Source: an uncultured bacterium
GTDB lineage: Bacteria > Armatimonadota > HRBIN16
Direction: 5' to 3'
Assembly (NCBI GenBank): GCA_964650005.1
Contig: CAZYPZ010000013.1
Span: 8,942-72,941 of the forward strand
Length of the DNA: 64,000 bases
Positions 5,729 through 64,000 of the stretch are shown here, piece after piece (within the stretch, counting starts at the first letter, position 1; each line of letters opens with the position of its first letter). The translations under genes and the position numbers were made by a program. The notes beneath the pieces are model-generated. The model did not search any database, had not been told where the DNA came from, and saw only the letters and a list, made by a program, of their open reading frames with translations.

Positions 5729-8700
5729 ATGACGGACGCGCGAAGCTTCGATAAGATCCGGATCAGCATCGCTTCTCCGGATGACATCCGAACATGGTCA
5801 TACGGCGAAGTCAAAAAACCGGAAACCATTAACTACCGCACGTTCAAACCCGAACGCGACGGCCTGTTCTGCGAGCGCATCTTTGGTCCCGTAAAGGACT
5901 GGGAATGCCACTGCGGACGGTACAAGAAACAGAAACACAAAGGCACCATTTGTGAGCGATGCGGCGTGGAAGTGACACGGGCCCGTGTGCGGCGCAGCCG
6001 CATGGGGCACATCGAACTGGCTTCGCCGGTAGCGCATATCTGGTACCTGAAGGCGTTGCCCTCGCCGCTTTCCCTGTTGCTGGACATTCCGGCCCGCAAC
6101 CTGGAAAAGGTTATCTACTTCGCGTCGTACATGGTGACCCATGTCGATCGCCTGCAGATCAACCAGGAGCTGGACGCCATCAAGGGCGCTTTGCGTGAAG
6201 TGATCGAGGACATGCACCAGCAACACGCCGCGGAAGTGGACCGTATGCGGCGTGAGCATAACCAGCAGGTGGAAGAACACCGCAACGCCGAGGGCGACGA
6301 TCACTGGGACGAAGACCAAATCCAGAGCAAGAATAACGCTTTGGAACGCCGTATTTTGCAGGAAGAGGCCGAGCTCAATGAGCGCATCGAAGAGATGCAG
6401 CGTGCCTTGGAAGGCACCGGTGACGCCGCTTCACTGGACAAGCTGGAAAAGAAGCAGCTGATCAACGATGACGAGTGGCGCGGGATTGAAAAGCTGCTGC
6501 GTGAAGTCAGTAAAAAGCTCGGCAAAGATCTGACCACACTGGTGCAGGCGTCTATGGGTGGTGCTGCCATCCGCGATCTGCTCAAAGAGATCGATCTGGA
6601 GCAGCTGCGGTTGGAACTCAAAACCGAGGCTGCCGGCGCGAGCGGGCAAGCCCGGCTGAAACTGATCAAACGCTTGGAGATCGTGGATTCGTTGATCGCC
6701 AGTCGCTGTCGACCGGAATGGATGATCCTGGAGGCGGTACCGGTGCTTCCGCCGGAGTTGCGGCCAATGGTGCAACTGGACGGGGGACGTTTCGCCACAT
6801 CTGACCTGAACGATCTGTATCGCCGGATCATCAACCGGAACAACCGACTGCGCAAGATCGTGGAGATCCGTGCGCCGGAGAGCATTATCAACCACGAAAA
6901 ACGCCTGCTGCAGGAAGCGGTGGATGCGTTGATTGATAACGGGCGGCGCTCGCGCCCCGTTGTGGGATCGAATAACCGCGCCCTGAAGTCGCTGTCCGAC
7001 ATGCTCAAAGGCAAAGAGGGACGGTTCCGCAAGAACCTGCTGGGCAAACGTGTGGACTATTCGGGCCGTTCGGTTATCGTGGTGGGGCCGCATCTGAAAC
7101 TGCATCAGTGCGGTCTTCCCAAAGAGATGGCACTCGAGCTGTTCAAGCCATTCGTGATGAAGAACCTGGTGGACCGTGGCGTCGCCACCAATGTGAAGCA
7201 AGCTAAACGGATGATCGAGCGGCTGAGCGATGCTGTCTGGGACTCCTTGGATGAGGTCATCCGCGAACATCCGGTATTGCTGAACCGTGCGCCGACCCTG
7301 CACCGCTTGGGTATTCAGGCATTCGAGCCGAAGCTGGTGGACGGCAAGGCGATCCAGATCCATCCGCTGGTCTGCACCGCGTTCAACGCGGACTTCGACG
7401 GCGATCAGATGGCTGTACATGTGCCGTTGAGTCCGCTGGCACAGGCCGAAGCGCGTGTGCTGATGCTGTCATCACAAAACCTGTTCTCACCGGCCAGTGG
7501 ACATGCGATTGTGGCGCCAACGCAAGACATCGTGTTGGGCTGCTACTATCTGACCATGACCAGTCCGGATGACTCGGACAATCAGGTGATCGGTTCAACC
7601 CCGTTGCCTATCGGGAGCGAGGTGGAATGGCTGCCGTTCCGCTCCGTGGATGAGGTGATCACCGCCTGGCAGGACCGCCGGCTGCGCTTGCACCAGCGGG
7701 TCAAGGTGCGAATCGAGCGCAACGGTGTCCGTGAGGTGGTGGAGACCACTCCGGGACGCCTGATGTTCCACCAGATCTTGCCTCCGCCCTTGAAGTACAG
7801 CGATGAATATCTCAATCGCACCATGAACAAGAATGAGCTGGGGGCGTTGGTGGTGACCTGCTTCGAAAAAGCAGGACATGAGGCCACGGTCAAGCTTCTG
7901 GACGATGTGAAAGACCTCGGTTTCCGCTTTGCGAAGCTGTCGGGTGTGACCATCGCGATGACCGATATGGATAGCCCGCCGGCTCGCGCCGACATTTTGA
8001 AGCGCACCTATGCTGCGGTGGAGCGTCTGCGCAATCGATATGACCGGGGATTGATCCGTATCGAAGACCGGAAAAAGCAGACTGTGGAGGCGTGGACCCG
8101 CGCAGGAGCTGAACTGGGGCAGGCGATCGTCGAATCCACCGACCATCGTAATCCGCTCTTTATCATTACCGACTCTGGAGCTCGCGGATCCCACAAGCAG
8201 CTGTCCCAGCTGGCGGGTATGCGCGGACTGTTCGCGGACGCTCGCGGCAACCTGATGGAGGACCTGCCGATCACGTCGAACTTCCATGAAGGGCTGTCGG
8301 TTTTCGAATACTTCGTGTCTACGCACGGAGCCCGAAAAGGAATGTCGGACACGGCGTTGCGTACGGCAGATGCGGGCTATCTGACCCGACGTCTGGTTGA
8401 CGCCGCGCAAGATGTGATCGTTCGCATTCATGACTGCCAGACGCAGAACGGTATATTTGTGCGGCTGAAGAGCCAAAACAACAATATCGTGGAGACGGTG
8501 GCAGAGCGGCTCTATGGGCGGATCGCCATGCAGGACCTCGAGCATCCGGTGACCGGAGAACGGTTGATGCAAGCCGGCGAGATGATTGGCGAAGATGCAG
8601 CGCGTCACGTCGATCGGTTGCTCATCGTTGCAGCCGGTCTGCTGGCGGCGCGGCAGACGCCGGAATGTCGGAAGGCGCATGCTGCATGGAAAGCATCTGG

Positions 8701-11656: not shown

Positions 11657-13750
<2,094 letters not shown>

Positions 13751-21785: not shown

Positions 21786-23867
21786 GTGAAGCAGGTTGGT
21801 ATAGATGCGATCCGCAACATGGCCTTTTTAGGTCACGGCGGATCTGGCAAATCCAGTATGGCCGAAGCGCTGCTGTTCAGCGCGGCTAACATCGACCGTC
21901 TGGGTCGCGTGGATGACGGGAGCTCTTGCTCGGACTTCGACGACGACGAGAAGAAGAGGCATATCAGTATCAACCTCTCGGTGATACCCGTTCTCTGGAA
22001 AGAGACCAAGCTGAATATACTGGATGCCCCGGGCTTTTTGGACTTCGTGGGGGAAGTGTACAGCGCCCTGGCCGTCAGTGACGCCGCCGTCATTTTCACT
22101 CCGGCCACCAGCGCACTGGAAGTAGGTTTTCACATCGCCTGGGAACAGGTGGAAGATCGCAGTCTGCCTTGCGCTGTATGTGTCAATAAGATGGACCGTG
22201 AGAACGCCGATTTCGGCGCACGCGTGAGGGAATTGCGAGGAACATATGGCACCAAGGTGGTGCCGGTTGCGGTGCCTATCGGATCGCAGACAACGTTTGA
22301 CGGCGTGATCGACTTGCTCAACAACCGGGCGATCCAAGGCGTTGGGGCGGCTGCAAAGGAGGTTCCCGTCGATTCGGTCATCGGTGCTGTTCAAGACGAT
22401 CTGGACGAGTATCGTCAGTGGCTGACCGAAGCCGCCGCAGAAGGCGATGACGAATTGATGATGAAGTACCTGGAAGAGGAGCAGTTGACGCCAGAAGAGG
22501 TCGCACAGGGGATCGTCGCCGCCTTCAAGGCGGGAAAGATCGTTCCCGTGTTCGGTGCTTCTGCAGCCAACCCATCCGGCTTGACCGCTGTGCTGGATCT
22601 GATGGCACAGCTGTTCCCGACGCCGGCCGACAGAGGACCCGCACGGTCGGCAACAGGGGATGAGACTCGCCTGCCGTCTGACTCGGAGCCCTTCTCTGCT
22701 TTCGTTTTCAAGACGACCGCCGATCCGTTTGTGGGTAAGTTGACTTACTTCAAAGTGATGAGCGGGCAGCTCAAAGCCGATTCGCACGTGTGGAATGCCA
22801 ATAAGTCCCATGACGAGCGGATCGGACAACCATTCTTCCTGCGCGGAAAGACGCAAGCCAATACGGCTGTGGTCGGGGCGGGCGATATCGCCGCGGTATC
22901 CAAGTTGCAGGAGACTGGTACAAACGACACATTGTGCGATCGGGCCAAACCCATCGTGTACCCGCCAATCGCTTTCCCCAAGCCGGTGTACAGTCTGGCC
23001 GTGCGAGCCAAGAGCAAGGCCGATGAGGATAAGATGGGCAATGCGATCGCAAGAATGGCGGAAGAGGATCCAACATTTACCTACCATCGTGATCCCGAAA
23101 CCAGCCAGACGGTCATATCCGGCATGGGTGACACCCATTTGGATGTGGCGATGGCGCGAATGAAGCGCAAATTCGGTACCGAGGTGGAAACAGAGCCCAT
23201 CCGCATAGCTTATCGTGAGGCCATACAAGGCAAGGCAGAGGCGCAGGGACGACACAAGAAACAGACCGGAGGACGTGGGCAGTTTGGTGACTGCTGGATC
23301 CGGATCGAGCCTACAGAGCGTGGCGCCGGGTTCGAGTTTGCCGATGAGATCTTTGGAGGCGCTATCCCCAAGCAGTACGTGCCAGCTGTGGAAAAAGGTG
23401 TGCGTACCGCTATGGCGCGGGGTGTGATCGCCGGTTACCCTGTGGTGGATGTGAAAGTCACGGTGTACGATGGCTCGTTCCACACGGTTGACTCATCGGA
23501 CGCTGCATTCCAGATGGCCGGTATCTTGGCGTTCAATAACGCAGCTGCCAAGGCGGGGGTGGCGTTGCTGGAGCCGATCATGAAGGTCGAAGTGATCGTG
23601 CCGGAAGAAGACATGGGCGCGGTGATGAGCGACTTCAACGGCAAGCGTGGACGCGTTCTGGGAATGGAAAGCGCCGGAAAGGGACGACAGTTGGTGACGG
23701 CGCTGGTTCCGCAGGCGGAGATGCTTCGCTATGCAATCGATCTGCGCTCGATCACCCGGGGACGCGGCAGCTTTACCACCGAGTTCTCACACTACGAAGA
23801 AGTGCCGGCACATGTGGCCCAGCCTGTCATCGATGCGTATAAGGCGCAGAAGGCCAAAGACGAGTAG
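21786..23867 (+). CDS. EF-G paralogue of the EF-G-2/EFG-like type (translational GTPase), sitting inside the r-protein operon
   Basis: Five-domain EF-G architecture over 693 aa. The G1 motif is divergent (GHGGSGKSS rather than AHIDAGKTT); DAPG (G3) and NKMD (G4) are present, and the C-terminal QTGGRGQFG block is EF-G-like. GTG start with a GGAGG RBS. Confidence 0.85.
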   Translation: MKQVGIDAIRNMAFLGHGGSGKSSMAEALLFSAANIDRLGRVDDGSSCSDFDDDEKKRHISINLSVIPVLWKETKLNILDAPGFLDFVGEVYSALAVSDAAVIFTPATSALEVGFHIAWEQVEDRSLPCAVCVNKMDRENADFGARVRELRGTYGTKVVPVAVPIGSQTTFDGVIDLLNNRAIQGVGAAAKEVPVDSVIGAVQDDLDEYRQWLTEAAAEGDDELMMKYLEEEQLTPEEVAQGIVAAFKAGKIVPVFGASAANPSGLTAVLDLMAQLFPTPADRGPARSATGDETRLPSDSEPFSAFVFKTTADPFVGKLTYFKVMSGQLKADSHVWNANKSHDERIGQPFFLRGKTQANTAVVGAGDIAAVSKLQETGTNDTLCDRAKPIVYPPIAFPKPVYSLAVRAKSKADEDKMGNAIARMAEEDPTFTYHRDPETSQTVISGMGDTHLDVAMARMKRKFGTEVETEPIRIAYREAIQGKAEAQGRHKKQTGGRGQFGDCWIRIEPTERGAGFEFADEIFGGAIPKQYVPAVEKGVRTAMARGVIAGYPVVDVKVTVYDGSFHTVDSSDAAFQMAGILAFNNAAAKAGVALLEPIMKVEVIVPEEDMGAVMSDFNGKRGRVLGMESAGKGRQLVTALVPQAEMLRYAIDLRSITRGRGSFTTEFSHYEEVPAHVAQPVIDAYKAQKAKDE

Positions 23868-57606: not shown

Positions 57607-58398
57607 TTACCGAACCAGAAGCCAGACGGCAGACAGTGCGGACAGTCCGATAATCAGCCGTTCGAAAAGCACAGGGGGTATCCGCCGGAGCAGCCATCGC
57701 CCGGAGTACAGACCGGCCACCACAAACGGTGACACGATCAGGTCAAACCACAGCCCTTTGGGGGTGATAAATGCATACCGGGGATCATGCATAGACAGAC
57801 CAATGAGTATCGGTAGTTTGCTGATGTTCACCAGACAGAAAAACCAGGCATTGGTGCCGACGAATTGGACCGGTGACAACCTGGCGCCTGACAGGTAGAT
57901 GGCCATGACCGGTCCGGCCGCGTTGGATACCGTGGTGGTAAAACCCGCCAGTATGCCCGAGACCGGATACATCCAAGCGGATCGCAAAGGCCCACTCTTA
58001 TGCAGTCTGTACAGGTGTACGGCGATCAGCATCAGCACAATGGCGCCGATGGCCCGATTCATCGCGACCGCCCCGAAGCTGCTCTGTCCCACCTTCCACA
58101 AAAACAGCGCACCCAGTATCAAGCCCGGAATGACCCATCCGGCGATGTGTCGCAATTCTTGCCATTTTGTGTGCCGATGAAACCAAGCCACGGCGAACAT
58201 ATCCGCGAAGATCAACAGGGGCAGCATGACTCCGACCGCCAGACGGCCGTTAAACAGGATCGCCAGCAGCACAACCACCAACACGCCGGATGTCGGCACA
58301 CCGGATTTGCTGAATCCAACGAGTACGCCCACCACAGCGGCCGCTATCCACTGAAGCCAGCCGAAATCAGCAAACAGGTTCAATGGAGTGTCAGGCAT
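57607..58398 (-). CDS. TauE/SafE-family (DUF81) membrane permease
   Basis: Multi-TM protein with GFSKSG-type motifs; the ATG overlaps the hydF stop by 8 nt. Confidence 0.75.
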   Translation of the reverse strand: MPDTPLNLFADFGWLQWIAAAVVGVLVGFSKSGVPTSGVLVVVLLAILFNGRLAVGVMLPLLIFADMFAVAWFHRHTKWQELRHIAGWVIPGLILGALFLWKVGQSSFGAVAMNRAIGAIVLMLIAVHLYRLHKSGPLRSAWMYPVSGILAGFTTTVSNAAGPVMAIYLSGARLSPVQFVGTNAWFFCLVNISKLPILIGLSMHDPRYAFITPKGLWFDLIVSPFVVAGLYSGRWLLRRIPPVLFERLIIGLSALSAVWLLVR

Positions 58399-59617
58399 TC
58401 TGTAAGGCGTGCAACGCCGAGGGAAATGGCGCCAGAGCGCGGCGGGTGATTCCCAGCGCATGGGCGATGGCAATACCGTAGTTGGTAATGGGCACTCCGG
58501 CTTCGCGGCAGCGGGCCACGCGTGACAGAATGACCCGGCGGGTCACCGAGCATCCGCCGCATTGTACGACCAGCGCGTATCCCGTGAGGTCCTCCGGGAA
58601 GTCGAGACCCTGTACGTGCTGGAACTCCAACTGGCATCCCGTATATTGGCGCAGCCAGCGGGGTATCTTGACGCGGCCGATGTCGTCGCCGATGGGATGA
58701 TGTGTGCATGACTCCGCCATGAGCACCCGATCACCATCCCGCAGGCGGTCAATGGAGGCGGCTCCGGCCGCGAATGCGTCCAAGTCCCCATTACGGCGTG
58801 CCTGCAGGATGGAGAAAGATGTCATCGGTACCGACTCGGGAGTGTCCGCCGCCACTTTCAGAAACGCCTGTGAATCGGTGACTACCAGATCGGGAGGCGT
58901 TTTGAGCCGTTCCAACGCCAGGCGCAATTCGCGCTCTTTCACCACCAGCGCCATCGCGTCGTGGTCCAGCAGGTCCCGGATGGCCTGGACCTGCGGCATG
59001 ATCAACCGCCCTTTGGGCGCCTCCATGTCGATCGGGGTCACAAGCACGGCGATGCCGCCTACCGGCACGAGATCACCCAGTAGCGAGGGAACTTCCATCC
59101 ATTCGGCAGGAGCCGCGTCGGCAAGCGCATCCCGCAGTGCGCGGATGCCCGTTCCGGTGCGTGCGCTGACCACCACGGGCCGAAGCCCGGATGAACGCAG
59201 TGTATCCAGCCAGCTGTCTGCAGGCGGATTGATGTCTGCTTTGTTTACGGCGACCACCACAGGCACGCTGCGCTGGCGCAGGCGTTCCAGCAGCCCCTGT
59301 TCAAACACGCCCCATACGCCCGCTTCGGTGATGATAACCGCCAGGTCCACCCGCTCCAGCACCTTACGGGTACGCTCCACGCGCGCCTCGCCCAATGCGC
59401 CCTCATCGTCCACTCCGGCCGTGTCGACAAACACCACCGGCCCCAGCGGAAGCATCTCCATCACTTTCTCCACTGGGTCTGTGGTGGTGCCTGCCTCACT
59501 GGACACCAGTGAGACATCCTGTCGGGTAATCGCGTTCAACACCGAGCTCTTACCCGTGTTCCGGCGGCCAAACAGGCCGATATGAAGTCTCAGACTTTTG
59601 GGCGTGCGCTGCATCAT
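58391..59617 (-). CDS. hydF: [FeFe]-hydrogenase maturation GTPase HydF
   Basis: GRRNTGKSS P-loop; near-colinear with Thermotoga HydF, including the CTHHP...RVKIPRWL...QCGGC cluster-binding region. Confidence 0.85.
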   Translation of the reverse strand: MMQRTPKSLRLHIGLFGRRNTGKSSVLNAITRQDVSLVSSEAGTTTDPVEKVMEMLPLGPVVFVDTAGVDDEGALGEARVERTRKVLERVDLAVIITEAGVWGVFEQGLLERLRQRSVPVVVAVNKADINPPADSWLDTLRSSGLRPVVVSARTGTGIRALRDALADAAPAEWMEVPSLLGDLVPVGGIAVLVTPIDMEAPKGRLIMPQVQAIRDLLDHDAMALVVKERELRLALERLKTPPDLVVTDSQAFLKVAADTPESVPMTSFSILQARRNGDLDAFAAGAASIDRLRDGDRVLMAESCTHHPIGDDIGRVKIPRWLRQYTGCQLEFQHVQGLDFPEDLTGYALVVQCGGCSVTRRVILSRVARCREAGVPITNYGIAIAHALGITRRALAPFPSALHALQNA

Positions 59618-61047
59618 GGGCCGGCGCCTCCTTCGATCGTATCCGGTGAGCCGAGCATGGTGATGCGGTCCGGACTGATTGCCCGGTCGAACGACTGGGC
59701 ATCCATCGCCCCCGTCTCAACAGCCGCTTCCCGAAGACTGCACGAGTGCGCCTGAGCGTATTGCAGTATGCGCAGTGCACCGCTGTAACCCACAGCGGGA
59801 ACCAGCGCAGTCGCCAGTGCTGTACTGTTGCTCACCTGCAAATCGCATCTGTGTTCGTTGGCGGTGATGCCCGATACGCACAGTTCCGCAAGCACCCGGA
59901 TGGCGTTGGTCAACAGCTCGACTGCGTGAAGCAGGGAGTCCGCCACCAAAGGGAGATACTGACTCAACTCCAGATTGGCCAAACCGCAGGCGGTGGAGAT
60001 CTCCTGGTCGGCAGACATGACGCGTAACGCCGCCTGAGCCGCTGCTTCCGGAATGACCGGATTGACCTTGCCGGGCATGATCGATGAGCCCGCTTGTCGC
60101 GGGGGCAGGTTGATCTCCCCCAGACCGGCATCCGGTCCCGATGACAGCAGCCGCAAATCTGTGCTGATCTTTAGCACGTTCACTGCCACCGTACGCACCA
60201 TGCCGCTGACCTCGACCAAGGCATCGGTGTTTTGGGTGGCCTCCAGCAGGTTTTCCGCTCGAGCCAGGCCAAAGCCGGTCAGTTCACGTAAGTGGTCGAC
60301 CACTCGAAAGATATATCGGCGGGGAGCTCCGAGTCCCGTGCCGATCGCTGTGCCTCCAAGATTGACCACACGCAGCCGTTCTTCGCAGCGTGTCAACCGC
60401 CAACGGTCACGCGCCAAGGCGTCCGCGAACGCTCCCATCGATCGGCCCAGCGTCGTCAGCGCGGCGTCCTGCAGTTCCGTGCGGCCGACTTTCACCACAT
60501 GCGCCAAAGCTCGCTCCCGCTCCTGGAAAGCCTCCATCAGGTCACTGACCGCGCGCTCCAACCGGCGAATCAGCCGGATCAGGGCAACGCGTAACGCCGT
60601 GGGATAGGTATCATTGGTGGATTGGCTGCGGTTGAGATCATCGATCGGGTGCAGCACGTCATAGGAGCCCGGCCGGTGTCCCATCAGGATGAGCGCCCTG
60701 TTGCACAGCACCTCATTCACGTTCATGTTGGTGCTGGTGCCGGCGCCACCCTGTAGAGCGTCCACCACGATGTGTTCATCCAGCGCGCCCTCCGCCATTT
60801 CCCTGCAGGCTTGGTCGATGGCCGAGAACAGATCCGGTGGCCAGGGGGTTACATCCTGGTTAGCCCGCGCGCAGGCGCGCTTGACATCGCCGTAGGCATG
60901 GATCAGCGATGCATGCACGCGCCTGCTCGTGAGCGGAAAACTCTCGCGGGCTCGCAGCGTATGGATCCCCCAAAGCGCGTCTGCGGGCACCTGCCGTTCA
61001 CCCAGCAGGTCATGTTCTATACGCCAACGCCCGTCAGACGAGCACAT
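59614..61047 (-). CDS. Aspartate ammonia-lyase/fumarase class-II family protein embedded in the hyd maturase operon
   Basis: GSSIMPGKVNPVIPE signature and RIEHDLLGERQVPADALWGIHTLRA N-terminus; GGGGAG RBS before the ATG at 61047. Confidence 0.85.
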   Translation of the reverse strand: MCSSDGRWRIEHDLLGERQVPADALWGIHTLRARESFPLTSRRVHASLIHAYGDVKRACARANQDVTPWPPDLFSAIDQACREMAEGALDEHIVVDALQGGAGTSTNMNVNEVLCNRALILMGHRPGSYDVLHPIDDLNRSQSTNDTYPTALRVALIRLIRRLERAVSDLMEAFQERERALAHVVKVGRTELQDAALTTLGRSMGAFADALARDRWRLTRCEERLRVVNLGGTAIGTGLGAPRRYIFRVVDHLRELTGFGLARAENLLEATQNTDALVEVSGMVRTVAVNVLKISTDLRLLSSGPDAGLGEINLPPRQAGSSIMPGKVNPVIPEAAAQAALRVMSADQEISTACGLANLELSQYLPLVADSLLHAVELLTNAIRVLAELCVSGITANEHRCDLQVSNSTALATALVPAVGYSGALRILQYAQAHSCSLREAAVETGAMDAQSFDRAISPDRITMLGSPDTIEGGAGP

Positions 61048-62446
61048 CGCGCTCCCCGCCAAGTACCCGGTCAACCATCTGTTGAGCGGCCGTACGTTCG
61101 GCTTCCGGCAAAGCTTGGAGTTGTTCGGCGATCAATCGGGCGCCTTCACGTCGCGTCTCCTCGCTGGCGTAGTCACACAGGTACTCCTGAAGGGTGGCCA
61201 ACGCATTCGGGCTGCAGCAACGCTGTATGAACCCGGGTATGGCGAACTCCATGAAGACCTCACCCGTACGGCCCAGTCGGTAGCAGGCGGTACAGAAACT
61301 CGGAATGTGTCCGTTCCGGATCAGTTCGAGTGACACCTCATCCAGCGAGCGGGTATCGGCCAGTTCAAACTGCTCGCGGTGCGTATCTTGCCCGTCCTTA
61401 GGGCTATCGGTGTATCCGCCCAGCTCTAGTCGGGTGCCTGCATCGATCTGTGTCACCCCGATCTCGAGGCCGGCACGCCGCACGGCAGGGCTTTCGCGGC
61501 AAGTCATGATCATGCCGGTATAAGGCACCGCCAGGCGCAGCGCGGTGACCGCCTGCAGGAACGACTTGTCATCCACCGGAGACCAGGCCGCGGGGTCCAG
61601 TCCACTGGCGGGACGAAGCCGAGGGAAACTGATGGTATGGGGGCCTACGCCTTGTGTCTGTTGCAGATAGTGAGCATGAGCCACCAGGCCCAGTACTTCA
61701 AAGCGCCAGTCACCCAAGCCGAACAGCGCACCGATGCCTACATCGTCCAGCCCGGCTTCCATACCTCGCGACAGCGCATCCAGGCGCCAGTCATAATCGG
61801 CTTTCAGTGTGCCCTTGGGATGCCAGCGCGCATATGTTTCCGGGTGATAGGTCTCCTGAAACACCTGGTATGTGCCGATCCCCGCATCCTTGACCGTCCG
61901 GTATCCGGCGATATCCAGCGGAGCCGCGTTGATATTCACCCGCCGGATTTCACCGGGACCTTCCTTGACGCTGTAGACCGTTCGGGCACACTCGGCGATG
62001 AACTCCGGGCTGTATTCCGCGTGTTCGCCGAACACCAGGATGAGCCGTTTCTGTCCGGTGGCGATCAGCGCGCGCGTCTGCTCCTTCACCTGATCCAAAG
62101 TGAGGCTGATACGTACGGCGTCGCGATTGGATCGGCGAAAGCCGCAGTACTGGCAATCGTTCACGCATCGGTTGCCGATGTACAGCGGAGCGAACAGTAC
62201 GATCCGGTTGCCGTATACGCGATGTTTGAGTTCACGCGCTACCGATCCCATCTGTTCGATCAGATCCGGATCCGTTGCGGTGATCAGCGCCGCGGTCTGA
62301 CGCAGATCCAACGGCTGCAACGATGAACTGCAATCCAGCGCGTCACGGAATATCGCCGGATCGAAGGGCGCCTGTAAGAGCCGTTCGAATTCATCGACGT
62401 CGATGAACCGACGGTAGTTTTTACTGTATTCGGTCATGTCGGGCAT
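61034..62446 (-). CDS. hydG: [FeFe]-hydrogenase maturase HydG (radical-SAM tyrosine lyase)
   Basis: CVNDCQYC radical-SAM motif and C-terminal CTACYR...C auxiliary-cluster motif; colinear with Thermotoga HydG; GGAGGAGG RBS. Confidence 0.9.
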   Translation of the reverse strand: MPDMTEYSKNYRRFIDVDEFERLLQAPFDPAIFRDALDCSSSLQPLDLRQTAALITATDPDLIEQMGSVARELKHRVYGNRIVLFAPLYIGNRCVNDCQYCGFRRSNRDAVRISLTLDQVKEQTRALIATGQKRLILVFGEHAEYSPEFIAECARTVYSVKEGPGEIRRVNINAAPLDIAGYRTVKDAGIGTYQVFQETYHPETYARWHPKGTLKADYDWRLDALSRGMEAGLDDVGIGALFGLGDWRFEVLGLVAHAHYLQQTQGVGPHTISFPRLRPASGLDPAAWSPVDDKSFLQAVTALRLAVPYTGMIMTCRESPAVRRAGLEIGVTQIDAGTRLELGGYTDSPKDGQDTHREQFELADTRSLDEVSLELIRNGHIPSFCTACYRLGRTGEVFMEFAIPGFIQRCCSPNALATLQEYLCDYASEETRREGARLIAEQLQALPEAERTAAQQMVDRVLGGERDVLV

Positions 62447-63548
62447 GTCGCCTCTCGTCCTCCTCCTGTCTTCGCCGATAGGCCTCCGAAGCGCCCGGCC
62501 CGGTACTGGTCGGTCGTTTCAAACGCTGCAGCATGCGCAGCGCCGCGTCTGCCGGTCCATCGGGATCGCCGGCGGCAGACACTTTGCCCGGATAGATCGC
62601 GTAGTCTTCGCGATACCGGGCGGGGGTCAGGTTCAGCATCATGACGTTGGCGCCGCATCGCAGCGCCATCTCTCGGCCCGCCTCTGGGTCCACGGCAGCC
62701 AGTGCGGTGGCGGCGGGAATATTGGCATATGGGCAGGCCAGGCGCAGCAGCGCCAGCGCCTTCCATGTGTTGATTGCGGTGGGTTCAACCTGCCGGCCTT
62801 TCAGTCGTGCGGCCATACGCCAAGCGGGGTGATCCGGTTGGCGTCCCAGCGCGGTGTCCTCATGCAGTATGAATGGCCCAACGCCGATCATATCGAGGTT
62901 CAGTCGGGCGCATTCCAGAATATCGGTCGCCAGTCGCTCATAACTTTGGCCGGGAAGCCCGACCATAAAGCCGCCGCCCACTTCATACCCCATTTGCCTC
63001 AAGCGCATGAGCAACGCCATGCGATCAGATGATTGGCCGGCCACATCCGGGTGAACATGGTGATACAGCTCCGGATCGCTGGTTTCGAAGCGCATCAGAT
63101 AGCGGTCGGCTCCCGCTTCGCGCCACAGTGTATATTCAGCATCTGTCCATTCACCCAGACTGAGCGTGACGGCCAAGCCGGTCTCCTGTTTGGCCAGTCG
63201 GATGATCCGCGCGATCTCTTCGGCGGGGCGTCCGGGATCCTCACCGGATTGTAGCACCAGCGTGCCGCAACCGATGGCGACGGCGCGATGGGCGCAGGCG
63301 ATGATCTCTTCTTCCGGCATGCGGTACCGCATGGACGATTTGGATCCCGCCGTAAGCCCGCAATACGCGCAGGTGCGCCGGCAGGCGCTCGAGACTTCGA
63401 CGAGCCCGCGCAGATGCACCGCGTCTCCCACGGTACGTCGAGCCGTCGTGTCGGCAAGATCGAACAGGTGATGAAGCCGTTCTCTATCGGTAACGCGTAA
63501 CCATGCAAGCACCTGTTCATACTGCATGGCGCAGCATCGAGTAACCAC
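62421..63548 (-). CDS. hydE: [FeFe]-hydrogenase maturase HydE (radical SAM)
   Basis: CRRTCAYCGL motif and strong colinearity with Thermotoga HydE. Start is either GTG at 63548 or ATG at 63527. Confidence 0.88.
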   Translation of the reverse strand: MVTRCCAMQYEQVLAWLRVTDRERLHHLFDLADTTARRTVGDAVHLRGLVEVSSACRRTCAYCGLTAGSKSSMRYRMPEEEIIACAHRAVAIGCGTLVLQSGEDPGRPAEEIARIIRLAKQETGLAVTLSLGEWTDAEYTLWREAGADRYLMRFETSDPELYHHVHPDVAGQSSDRMALLMRLRQMGYEVGGGFMVGLPGQSYERLATDILECARLNLDMIGVGPFILHEDTALGRQPDHPAWRMAARLKGRQVEPTAINTWKALALLRLACPYANIPAATALAAVDPEAGREMALRCGANVMMLNLTPARYREDYAIYPGKVSAAGDPDGPADAALRMLQRLKRPTSTGPGASEAYRRRQEEDERRHARHDRIQ

Positions 63549-63604
63549 GTCGGATCAGATCGCTTTCGTTGACGGTCGGAGGCTGAGCGTCTTCCGCCAA
63601 CCCA

Positions 63605-63622
63605 TTGTGTCACATTTCACAG
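63605..63622. promoter_or_regulatory. Candidate Rex (redox-sensing repressor) operator upstream of hydE
   Basis: TTGTGTCACATTTCACAG versus the Rex consensus TTGTGAA-N4-TTCACAA; 57-75 nt upstream of the hydE start. Confidence 0.45.
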
Positions 63623-64000
63623 AGACATGTGGCACACCGCAGCGAAAAAGGAAGGGAAAACCGGTATCCTCCGCGTATATCCAGAATTGGACCGCTGTAA
63701 TCGACACGCCCGGCTATTAGTCAAAGTCAGCCTGTTTGTCAACAGCTGGTTGGCGCTTACAACGGATTCTCCCTGGGACGCTTATGGGTGCCTGCAACGT
63801 CGTACGCACATAATGATCGTCCCATATAAGGCGAATACCATCCATCGGTCATGGCCAGGGTTCCGCGGGCATGCAGGACGCCGGTGTCATTGTGCCTGCC
63901 ATACCGCCGATAGGCCGGGTATGTATGGACAATTCGTTTAAGTGGTTACATCGGAACAATCAGTTGCCAGGTCGTGCATCCATACACCCAGCATGCCGGT

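Follow-up and report, generated by a model that had tools for sequence, protein, structure and literature searches.

Does the [FeFe]-hydrogenase maturase operon in this stretch of Armatimonadota DNA carry, in front of its first gene, a binding site for a redox-sensing repressor? Rex operators of the form TTGTGAA-N4-TTCACAA are found in Firmicutes, Actinobacteria, Thermotogae and Thermus, and to our knowledge neither a Rex regulon nor any other transcriptional regulon has been described in the Armatimonadota. A first-pass annotation of the 64-kb stretch analysed here as a whole (hereafter the window; 64,000 nt) proposed a near-consensus Rex box upstream of the maturase gene hydE, which would place expression of the maturases under redox control. 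The motif is present with exactly the sequence and coordinates claimed: it reads TTGTGTCACATTTCACAG on the plus strand (63605-63622) and agrees with the Rex operator at 11 of the 14 specified positions. We asked whether this box is functional, and which protein, if any, would be expected to bind it.

The box precedes an operon on the minus strand (57607..63527) in which the ORFs of hydE, hydG, an aspartase-like gene, hydF and tauE overlap or abut one another (Table 1), and the same gene order is found in the related contig L003. The gene between hydG and hydF belongs to the aspartate ammonia-lyase/fumarase family, and the gene 3' of hydF encodes a TauE/SafE-family membrane protein; both are kept in L003. 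Two starts are available to hydE, a GTG at 63548 and an ATG at 63527, the latter being favoured by database gene calls (P0001 and P0002, 368 aa; P0001 is 100% identical to HydE over 368 aa) together with homologue alignment. Measured from the GTG, which the first-pass annotation had used as the start, the box lies 57-74 nt upstream; measured from the favoured ATG, it lies 78-95 nt upstream. No recognisable Shine-Dalgarno sequence was found for hydE. A divergent ORF beside the box (63627-63941, plus strand) was rejected as a gene, having no coding signature (GC3 of 0.56, as compared with 0.67 in hydE) and no homologue in the relatives. Elsewhere in the window, a second EF-G-like gene (21786-23867, plus strand; 693 aa, with all EF-G Pfam domains) is located inside a ribosomal-protein gene cluster, flanked by an rplE-like ORF and further ribosomal-protein ORFs, while the canonical fusA occupies 11657-13750. 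EF-G assigns the organism to the Armatimonadota, the label borne by nearly all of the closest named relatives, which share 71-78% identity with it.

Table 1. Features of the hyd maturase operon and its upstream region, in window coordinates
Feature	Position	Strand	Sequence, evidence or remark
TauE-family gene	57607-58473	-	NCBIfam/Pfam
hydF	58391-59617	-	TIGR03918
Aspartate ammonia-lyase-like gene	59614-61074	-	NCBIfam/Pfam
hydG	61034-62446	-	TIGR03955
hydE	62421-63527	-	radical SAM maturase, first gene of the operon; TIGR03956, 267.9 bits
Second invariant block (21 nt)	63560..63580	-	TCCGACCGTCAACGAAAGCGA; alignment of the window with relatives
Inverted repeat GGCGGAA...TCCGACC	63574..63598	-	between box and hydE; arms conserved, 12-13 nt loop variable
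Conserved block around the box	63601..63626	-	GTCyCTGTGAAATGTGACACAATGGG; 22-nt core 63601-63622 invariant between two independent lineages
Candidate extended -10, TGaCACAAT	63604..63612	-	TG 63612-63611, hexamer CACAAT 63609-63604; inside the box
Box	63605..63622	-	coding strand CTGTGAAATGTGACACAA; imperfect inverted repeat
Upstream conserved block (block A)	63650..63668	-	GATACCGGTTTyyCCTTCC, with palindrome ACCGGT; three independent upstream lineages
TTGACA-N17-TAATAG	63714..63742	-	TTGACA 63742-63737, TAATAG 63719-63714; window-specific promoter-like site

The evidence that the box matters comes from its conservation. A single related lineage was found in the databases searched, with a HydE 86% identical to that of the window (every other HydE is at most 57% identical), and it is sampled by one 17-kb MAG contig and seven shorter contigs (L003-L010). 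Between this lineage and the window, hydE shows 81% nucleotide identity overall and 61% at third-codon positions, so that the two have diverged considerably at silent sites. Nevertheless, the 22-nt block that contains the box (CTGTGAAATGTGACACAATGGG, 63601-63622) is identical at 22/22 positions, and the box itself is identical in all of L003-L010. At the third-position rate, 22 consecutive identities would be expected with a probability of 0.61^22, approximately 2e-5 per position. The remainder of the leader down to the ATG is approximately 84% identical, with invariant and variable patches alternating along it, and alignment of the window with the related lineage fails beyond about 170 nt upstream of hydE. 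As a conserved element the box is thus more than a chance occurrence, and its perfect retention in the related lineage, while neighbouring DNA diverged, supports the original suggestion that it behaves like a functional cis-element of the hydE promoter region. Being kept perfectly in the only known relative, the box is probably a real repressor-binding site.

The relatives fall into two upstream haplotypes with different neighbour genes, a HisKA sensor kinase and a 135-aa ORF in one type and a CBM9-like protein in the other. Nucleotide identity between sequences of the L003 and L005 types is 100% starting with the first base of the box and continuing for more than 3 kb into the operon; it is approximately 70% over the 100 nt before the box, and further up the sequences are unrelated. 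The junction, at L003 position 7272 and L005 position 1881 (corresponding to window position 63622), coincides exactly with the 5' edge of the box, and this break in identity looks like a recombination junction. Given such a junction, the box is backed by two independent lineages, and block A, which lies approximately 25 nt upstream of it, by three. Outside this group we examined 80 more distant, metagenomic hydE loci, retrieved without reference to the motif, and did not find the box upstream of hydE as a general feature: matches to TGTGA-N6-TCACA with up to 2 mismatches occur at 0.19/kb upstream of hydE, as compared with 0.18/kb overall, and an nhmmer search with the leader matched nothing in these loci.

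As a match to a consensus, the box is at chance level for the window. The Rex pattern, allowing up to 3 mismatches, has three matches in the 64 kb where 1.48 are expected, a number equalled in 17 of 100 shuffles; the other two are poor 3-mismatch matches, one within fusA and one at 1244-1261, a stretch without an assigned gene in the rough gene list. For TGTGA-N6-TCACA with up to 1 mismatch, one match was found in the 64 kb as compared with 1.96 expected, and this is the box, whose core TGTGT-N6-TCACA agrees with the CRP core at 9/10 positions and is the best in the window. No other exact TGTG-N8-CACA occurs in the 64 kb, and the box falls within the approximately 5.8 kb of non-coding DNA. One of its half-sites is a perfect TGTGAA and the other is degenerate (GACACA, where a Rex site would have TTCACA). 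Read from the sequence, 5/9 symmetric pairs of the dyad are complementary. The same 18 bp contain TGTGA twice in direct orientation (TGTGA-N2-TGTGA), and a perfect 9-bp palindrome of the form TGTG-A-CACA, TGTGACACA. A second 9-bp palindrome of this type, TGTGCCACA, occurs at 63629-63637 (minus strand), 23 nt upstream of the first from centre to centre; it is specific to the window and is not kept in the relatives.

The three mismatches can be compared with Rex operators that have been studied directly. In the structure of T. maritima Rex bound to DNA, each half-site is read at G5, G7 and A8, with T3/T4 contacted from the minor groove (PMC8836258). The half-site CTGTGAA of the box lacks T3 and the half-site TTGTGTC lacks A8/A9, with the equivalents of G5 and G7 present in both halves. 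Validated Rex sites of S. avermitilis include some with three mismatches and a degenerate TT in one half-site, as in ndh2 (TTGTGAAGGGGCGCACGA) and ectABC (TTGTGATCGACTCCACAT); 3-mismatch motifs bound Rex more weakly, and Rex bound 6/16 candidate motifs in EMSA (PMC5355995). The description of the box as near-consensus was therefore overstated: it has three mismatches, stands at chance level, and of the bases contacted by Rex is short of A8 in one half-site and of T3 in the second.

Within the 234 nt upstream of hydE, CACAAT is the sole -10-like hexamer (at least 4/6 matches, with A2 and T6 required) common to all three haplotypes, and it lies inside the box as part of the candidate extended -10 element TGaCACAAT, which is the probable promoter of the hydE operon, as judged from the alignment. 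A scan for consensus promoters reported no sigma-70 promoter in either lineage. The TTGACA hexamer that the first-pass annotation had pointed out as a -35 element is indeed present, 115 nt upstream of the box, but neither of the other two upstream haplotypes has kept it. As a hydE promoter, TTGACA-N17-TAATAG was rejected: the consensus scan did not report it, it has no counterpart in the relatives, and the region is unalignable in L003- or L004-type sequences. Sigma-54 (GG-N10-GC) and ECF-type patterns in the tract following the box, compared by eye only, had the wrong spacing or were not conserved. A class II CRP geometry was likewise rejected, since no -10-like hexamer is present 30-35 nt downstream of the box centre, a stretch that belongs to a variable patch.

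That the sole conserved -10-like element lies inside the box fits a repressor operator, and if TGaCACAAT is the promoter, a protein on the box would occlude it. A comparable arrangement is seen in S. avermitilis, where footprinted Rex operators lie between -50 and +25, overlapping core promoters (PMC5355995). From these sequence relationships we infer the position of the promoter, repression upon binding and the identity of the factor alike. The reading that we favour, with a probability of roughly 0.6, is that the box is the operator of a dimeric transcription factor reading TGTGA-type half-sites. Such a factor, a winged-helix dimer, would bind the TGTGA/TCACA half-sites, 6 bp apart, over the extended -10, and would there block RNA polymerase, keeping the maturase operon off.

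Rex is the most likely candidate for the factor that binds the box, and the narrower assignment of the box as a Rex operator is one that we make tentatively. According to it, Rex-NAD+ would occupy the box in the oxidised cell, and a rise in NADH/NAD+ would release Rex and allow the H-cluster maturases to be made, upon which an [FeFe]-hydrogenase encoded elsewhere would dispose of reducing equivalents as H2. There is precedent for Rex at such genes: in C. bescii the protein was shown by EMSA to bind in front of the hydG operon, at a distance of 181 nt from the ATG (PMC6391272), and the T. maritima Rex regulon takes in hydrogen production (PMC8836258). Genomic linkage points in the same direction, as a rex homologue directly adjoins hydE in 7 of the 80 distant loci (L014, L019, L044, L066, L073, L079 and L085; tblastn), two of which are confirmed as Rex by NCBIfam. 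The gene order is hydF-hydE-rex in four of these loci and rex-hydE in L019, and in L079 hydE is followed by a 1-mismatch Rex box, TAGTGAAATTATTCACAA, and then by rex. Upstream of rex in L014 and L019 we observed TGTTA/TAACA-type repeats, whose sequence suggests a variant Rex motif.

No rex gene was found by tblastn with a Rex query in the 64-kb window, as the first-pass annotation had stated, nor in the 17-kb contig of the relative, and it was the same query that found rex in the seven other loci. Among the window ORFs scanned there is no regulator of the Rex or the Crp/Fnr type. Allowing up to 4 mismatches to the box core, neither the window nor L003-L007 yielded a second Rex-like box, and no intergenic one lies near the oxidoreductase genes; the expectation of further Rex-like boxes upstream of redox genes thus found no support in approximately 80 kb of DNA from this lineage, an amount that makes for a weak regulon test. 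None of the 120 matches listed was an Armatimonadota-named Rex, the relatives of the hydE-linked Rex of L019 carried Planctomycetota and Fermentibacter names among the matches listed, and a literature search linking Rex to Armatimonadetes returned no match; neither source, therefore, yielded evidence of Rex in Armatimonadota. The proposal of Rex control accordingly survives in part, through the C. bescii hydG precedent (PMC6391272) and the presence of rex beside hydE in 7/80 loci. It is weakened by a core that is equally CRP/FNR-like, and by the lack of a rex gene, a second box or an Armatimonadota Rex in the DNA within reach.

The closest competitor is a regulator of the CRP/FNR superfamily with a CRP-type recognition helix, which, sensing redox state, oxygen, cAMP or some other ligand, would read the box as TGTGA-N6-TCACA and, according to the true position of the promoter, repress or activate the operon. 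We consider this possible though rather doubtful. Sites of this form are bound by E. coli CRP and its relatives, and the superfamily is present in almost every bacterial phylum. The 9/10 core of the box is the best of its kind in the window, and because the Rex and the CRP consensus coincide exactly in core and spacing, sequence cannot separate the two. FNR-type boxes do occur upstream of hydE elsewhere: one in L068 is perfect (TTGATCTGCATCAA, 1987-2000, 110 nt upstream of hydE) and one in L012 near-perfect (TTGACCTGAATCAA, 5833-5846, 159 nt upstream), so that in some lineages hydE is probably controlled by a protein of the Crp/Fnr family. However, a single match with no more than 1 mismatch is fewer than the number expected by chance in the 64 kb, as given above, and no crp/fnr-like gene was found beside hydE in the 80 loci, the window or L003, whereas rex was found seven times; with E. 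coli CRP and FNR as queries, which are insensitive, no neighbour of hydE was matched even at E<5. Moreover, a promoter at the extended -10 within the box would leave the site at neither of the positions from which activators act (-41.5 or -61.5), and its flanks are without the A/T-rich arms of strong CRP sites.

It is less probable, and in our view unlikely, that the conserved block represents mainly the core promoter (its extended -10, its discriminator and the start region), or else that it binds an unrelated regulator, for example one reading the direct repeat TGTGA-N2-TGTGA or the palindrome TGTGACACA, with the Rex/CRP-like dyad being incidental. Several of the observations described above would suit this explanation, namely that TGaCACAAT is the only conserved -10-like element, that the dyad is weak (5/9 symmetric pairs), and that the box also holds the direct TGTGA pair and the perfect TGTG-A-CACA palindrome; in addition, the leader blocks at 63560-63580 and 63650-63668 are equally conserved and resemble no Rex or CRP site. 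A core promoter alone does not account well for the pattern of conservation, since it would assign the upstream half of the box, CTGTGAAA, to the promoter spacer, for which conservation is not usual, yet this half is invariant, and the adjoining -35 region varies in all three haplotypes. Furthermore, no -35 element or other sigma-factor consensus fits, the sigma-54 and ECF patterns, compared by eye, not fitting both lineages.

A regulatory element at the level of RNA is improbable. The box would here be part of a structured 5' leader whose transcript starts further upstream, for example at TTGACA-N17-TAATAG, with block A (UUUYYCCUUCC) pairing with the purine tract that follows the box, and the UGUG...CACA arms forming a small hairpin. 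In keeping with such a leader, the approximately 145 nt upstream of hydE are conserved in blocks, unlike the DNA further up, no obvious Shine-Dalgarno sequence precedes hydE, and in the RNAalifold consensus fold helix 1, between block A and GGGwTGGCGGAA just 3' of the box, is 97% paired, the three variable positions of block A changing only between U-G and C-G. Against it, folding energies are ordinary (z-scores of -0.16 to -0.79), the window's own minimum-energy fold does not contain helix 1, and no compensatory double changes were seen in any alignable helix. Rfam gave no match in the whole window at gathering thresholds or in 63400-64000 at E<=10, nhmmer detected no similar leader in the 80 other hyd loci, and the upstream promoter that such a transcript requires is not conserved. 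A known RNA family or structured leader was thus rejected, with neither the z-scores, nor alifold, nor pair counting giving significant support, and there is nothing positive in favour of the RNA reading. A 16-codon upstream ORF (ATG 63605 to TGA 63555) was rejected as well, as the two lineages differ in it by 5 non-synonymous codons and 1 synonymous codon; these mostly non-synonymous changes, together with the invariant third positions in the conserved block, indicate a constraint on the nucleotide sequence rather than on a peptide.

Block A may bind a second protein or pair with another part of the RNA. It is conceivable, at long odds, that the whole region of approximately 145 nt (63527-63670) acts as a composite module, specific to the lineage, for the control of H-cluster maturation in Armatimonadota, made up of block A, the box, the GGCGGAA/TCCGACC repeat and the 21-nt invariant block. 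As part of the same remote reading, the module would be either a new leader RNA based on pairing between the pyrimidine block and the purine tract after the box, or a non-canonical asymmetric operator, which would extend the Rex regulon or define a new TGTGA-reading regulator. Finally, that the box has no specific function, being a chance match kept by recent recombination of the hydE-proximal segment or by slow evolution, would agree with its chance-level consensus match, with its support from two independent lineages only, and with the demonstrable exchange of the hyd operon by recombination (L003- and L005-type sequences being 100% identical over more than 3 kb up to a sharp junction), but is highly doubtful given that the window and L003 lineages have truly diverged (61% at third-codon positions), that 22 identities in a row are expected at about 2e-5 per position at a neutral-like rate, and that the alternating invariant and variable patches of the leader form the pattern expected of constrained elements.

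The box is a plausible regulatory site of an ordinary kind, and it opens no new question. If a Rex or CRP/FNR-type sensor does gate the hydEGF maturases, hydrogenase activity would be controlled at the level of cofactor assembly and tied to the redox state of the cell. This would extend to the Armatimonadota, a phylum without described regulons, a circuit known from Firmicutes and Thermotogae, and the box would provide a concrete motif for regulon reconstruction once complete genomes exist.

Compared with known systems, the box differs from Rex operators by three mismatches, through which one half-site is missing the contacted base A8 and the other is missing T3, and from known Rex systems in that it is a single site without regulon evidence, for which no cognate rex was seen. 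It resembles them in being an 18-bp dyad whose arms are TGTG/CACA and whose centre (ATGT) is largely A/T, in having one perfect TGTGAA half-site, and, like the footprinted operators (PMC5355995), in probably overlapping the core promoter. The particular counterpart among them is the C. bescii Rex site upstream of the CopG-hydG operon (PMC6391272), and the box likewise precedes an [FeFe]-hydrogenase maturase operon, at less than 100 nt from its first gene. With CRP-type sites the box shares the half-site sequence and spacing (9/10 core), but it is without their A/T-rich flanks and probably lies over the -10 rather than at an activator position, and no member of the CRP/FNR family was found near hydE in any locus examined. 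The FNR-type boxes of L068 and L012 (TTGAT-N4-ATCAA) belong to different lineages and carry TTGAT half-sites in place of TGTGA; like the box described here, they are dyad operators of a winged-helix dimer upstream of hydE, there at a distance of 110-160 nt.
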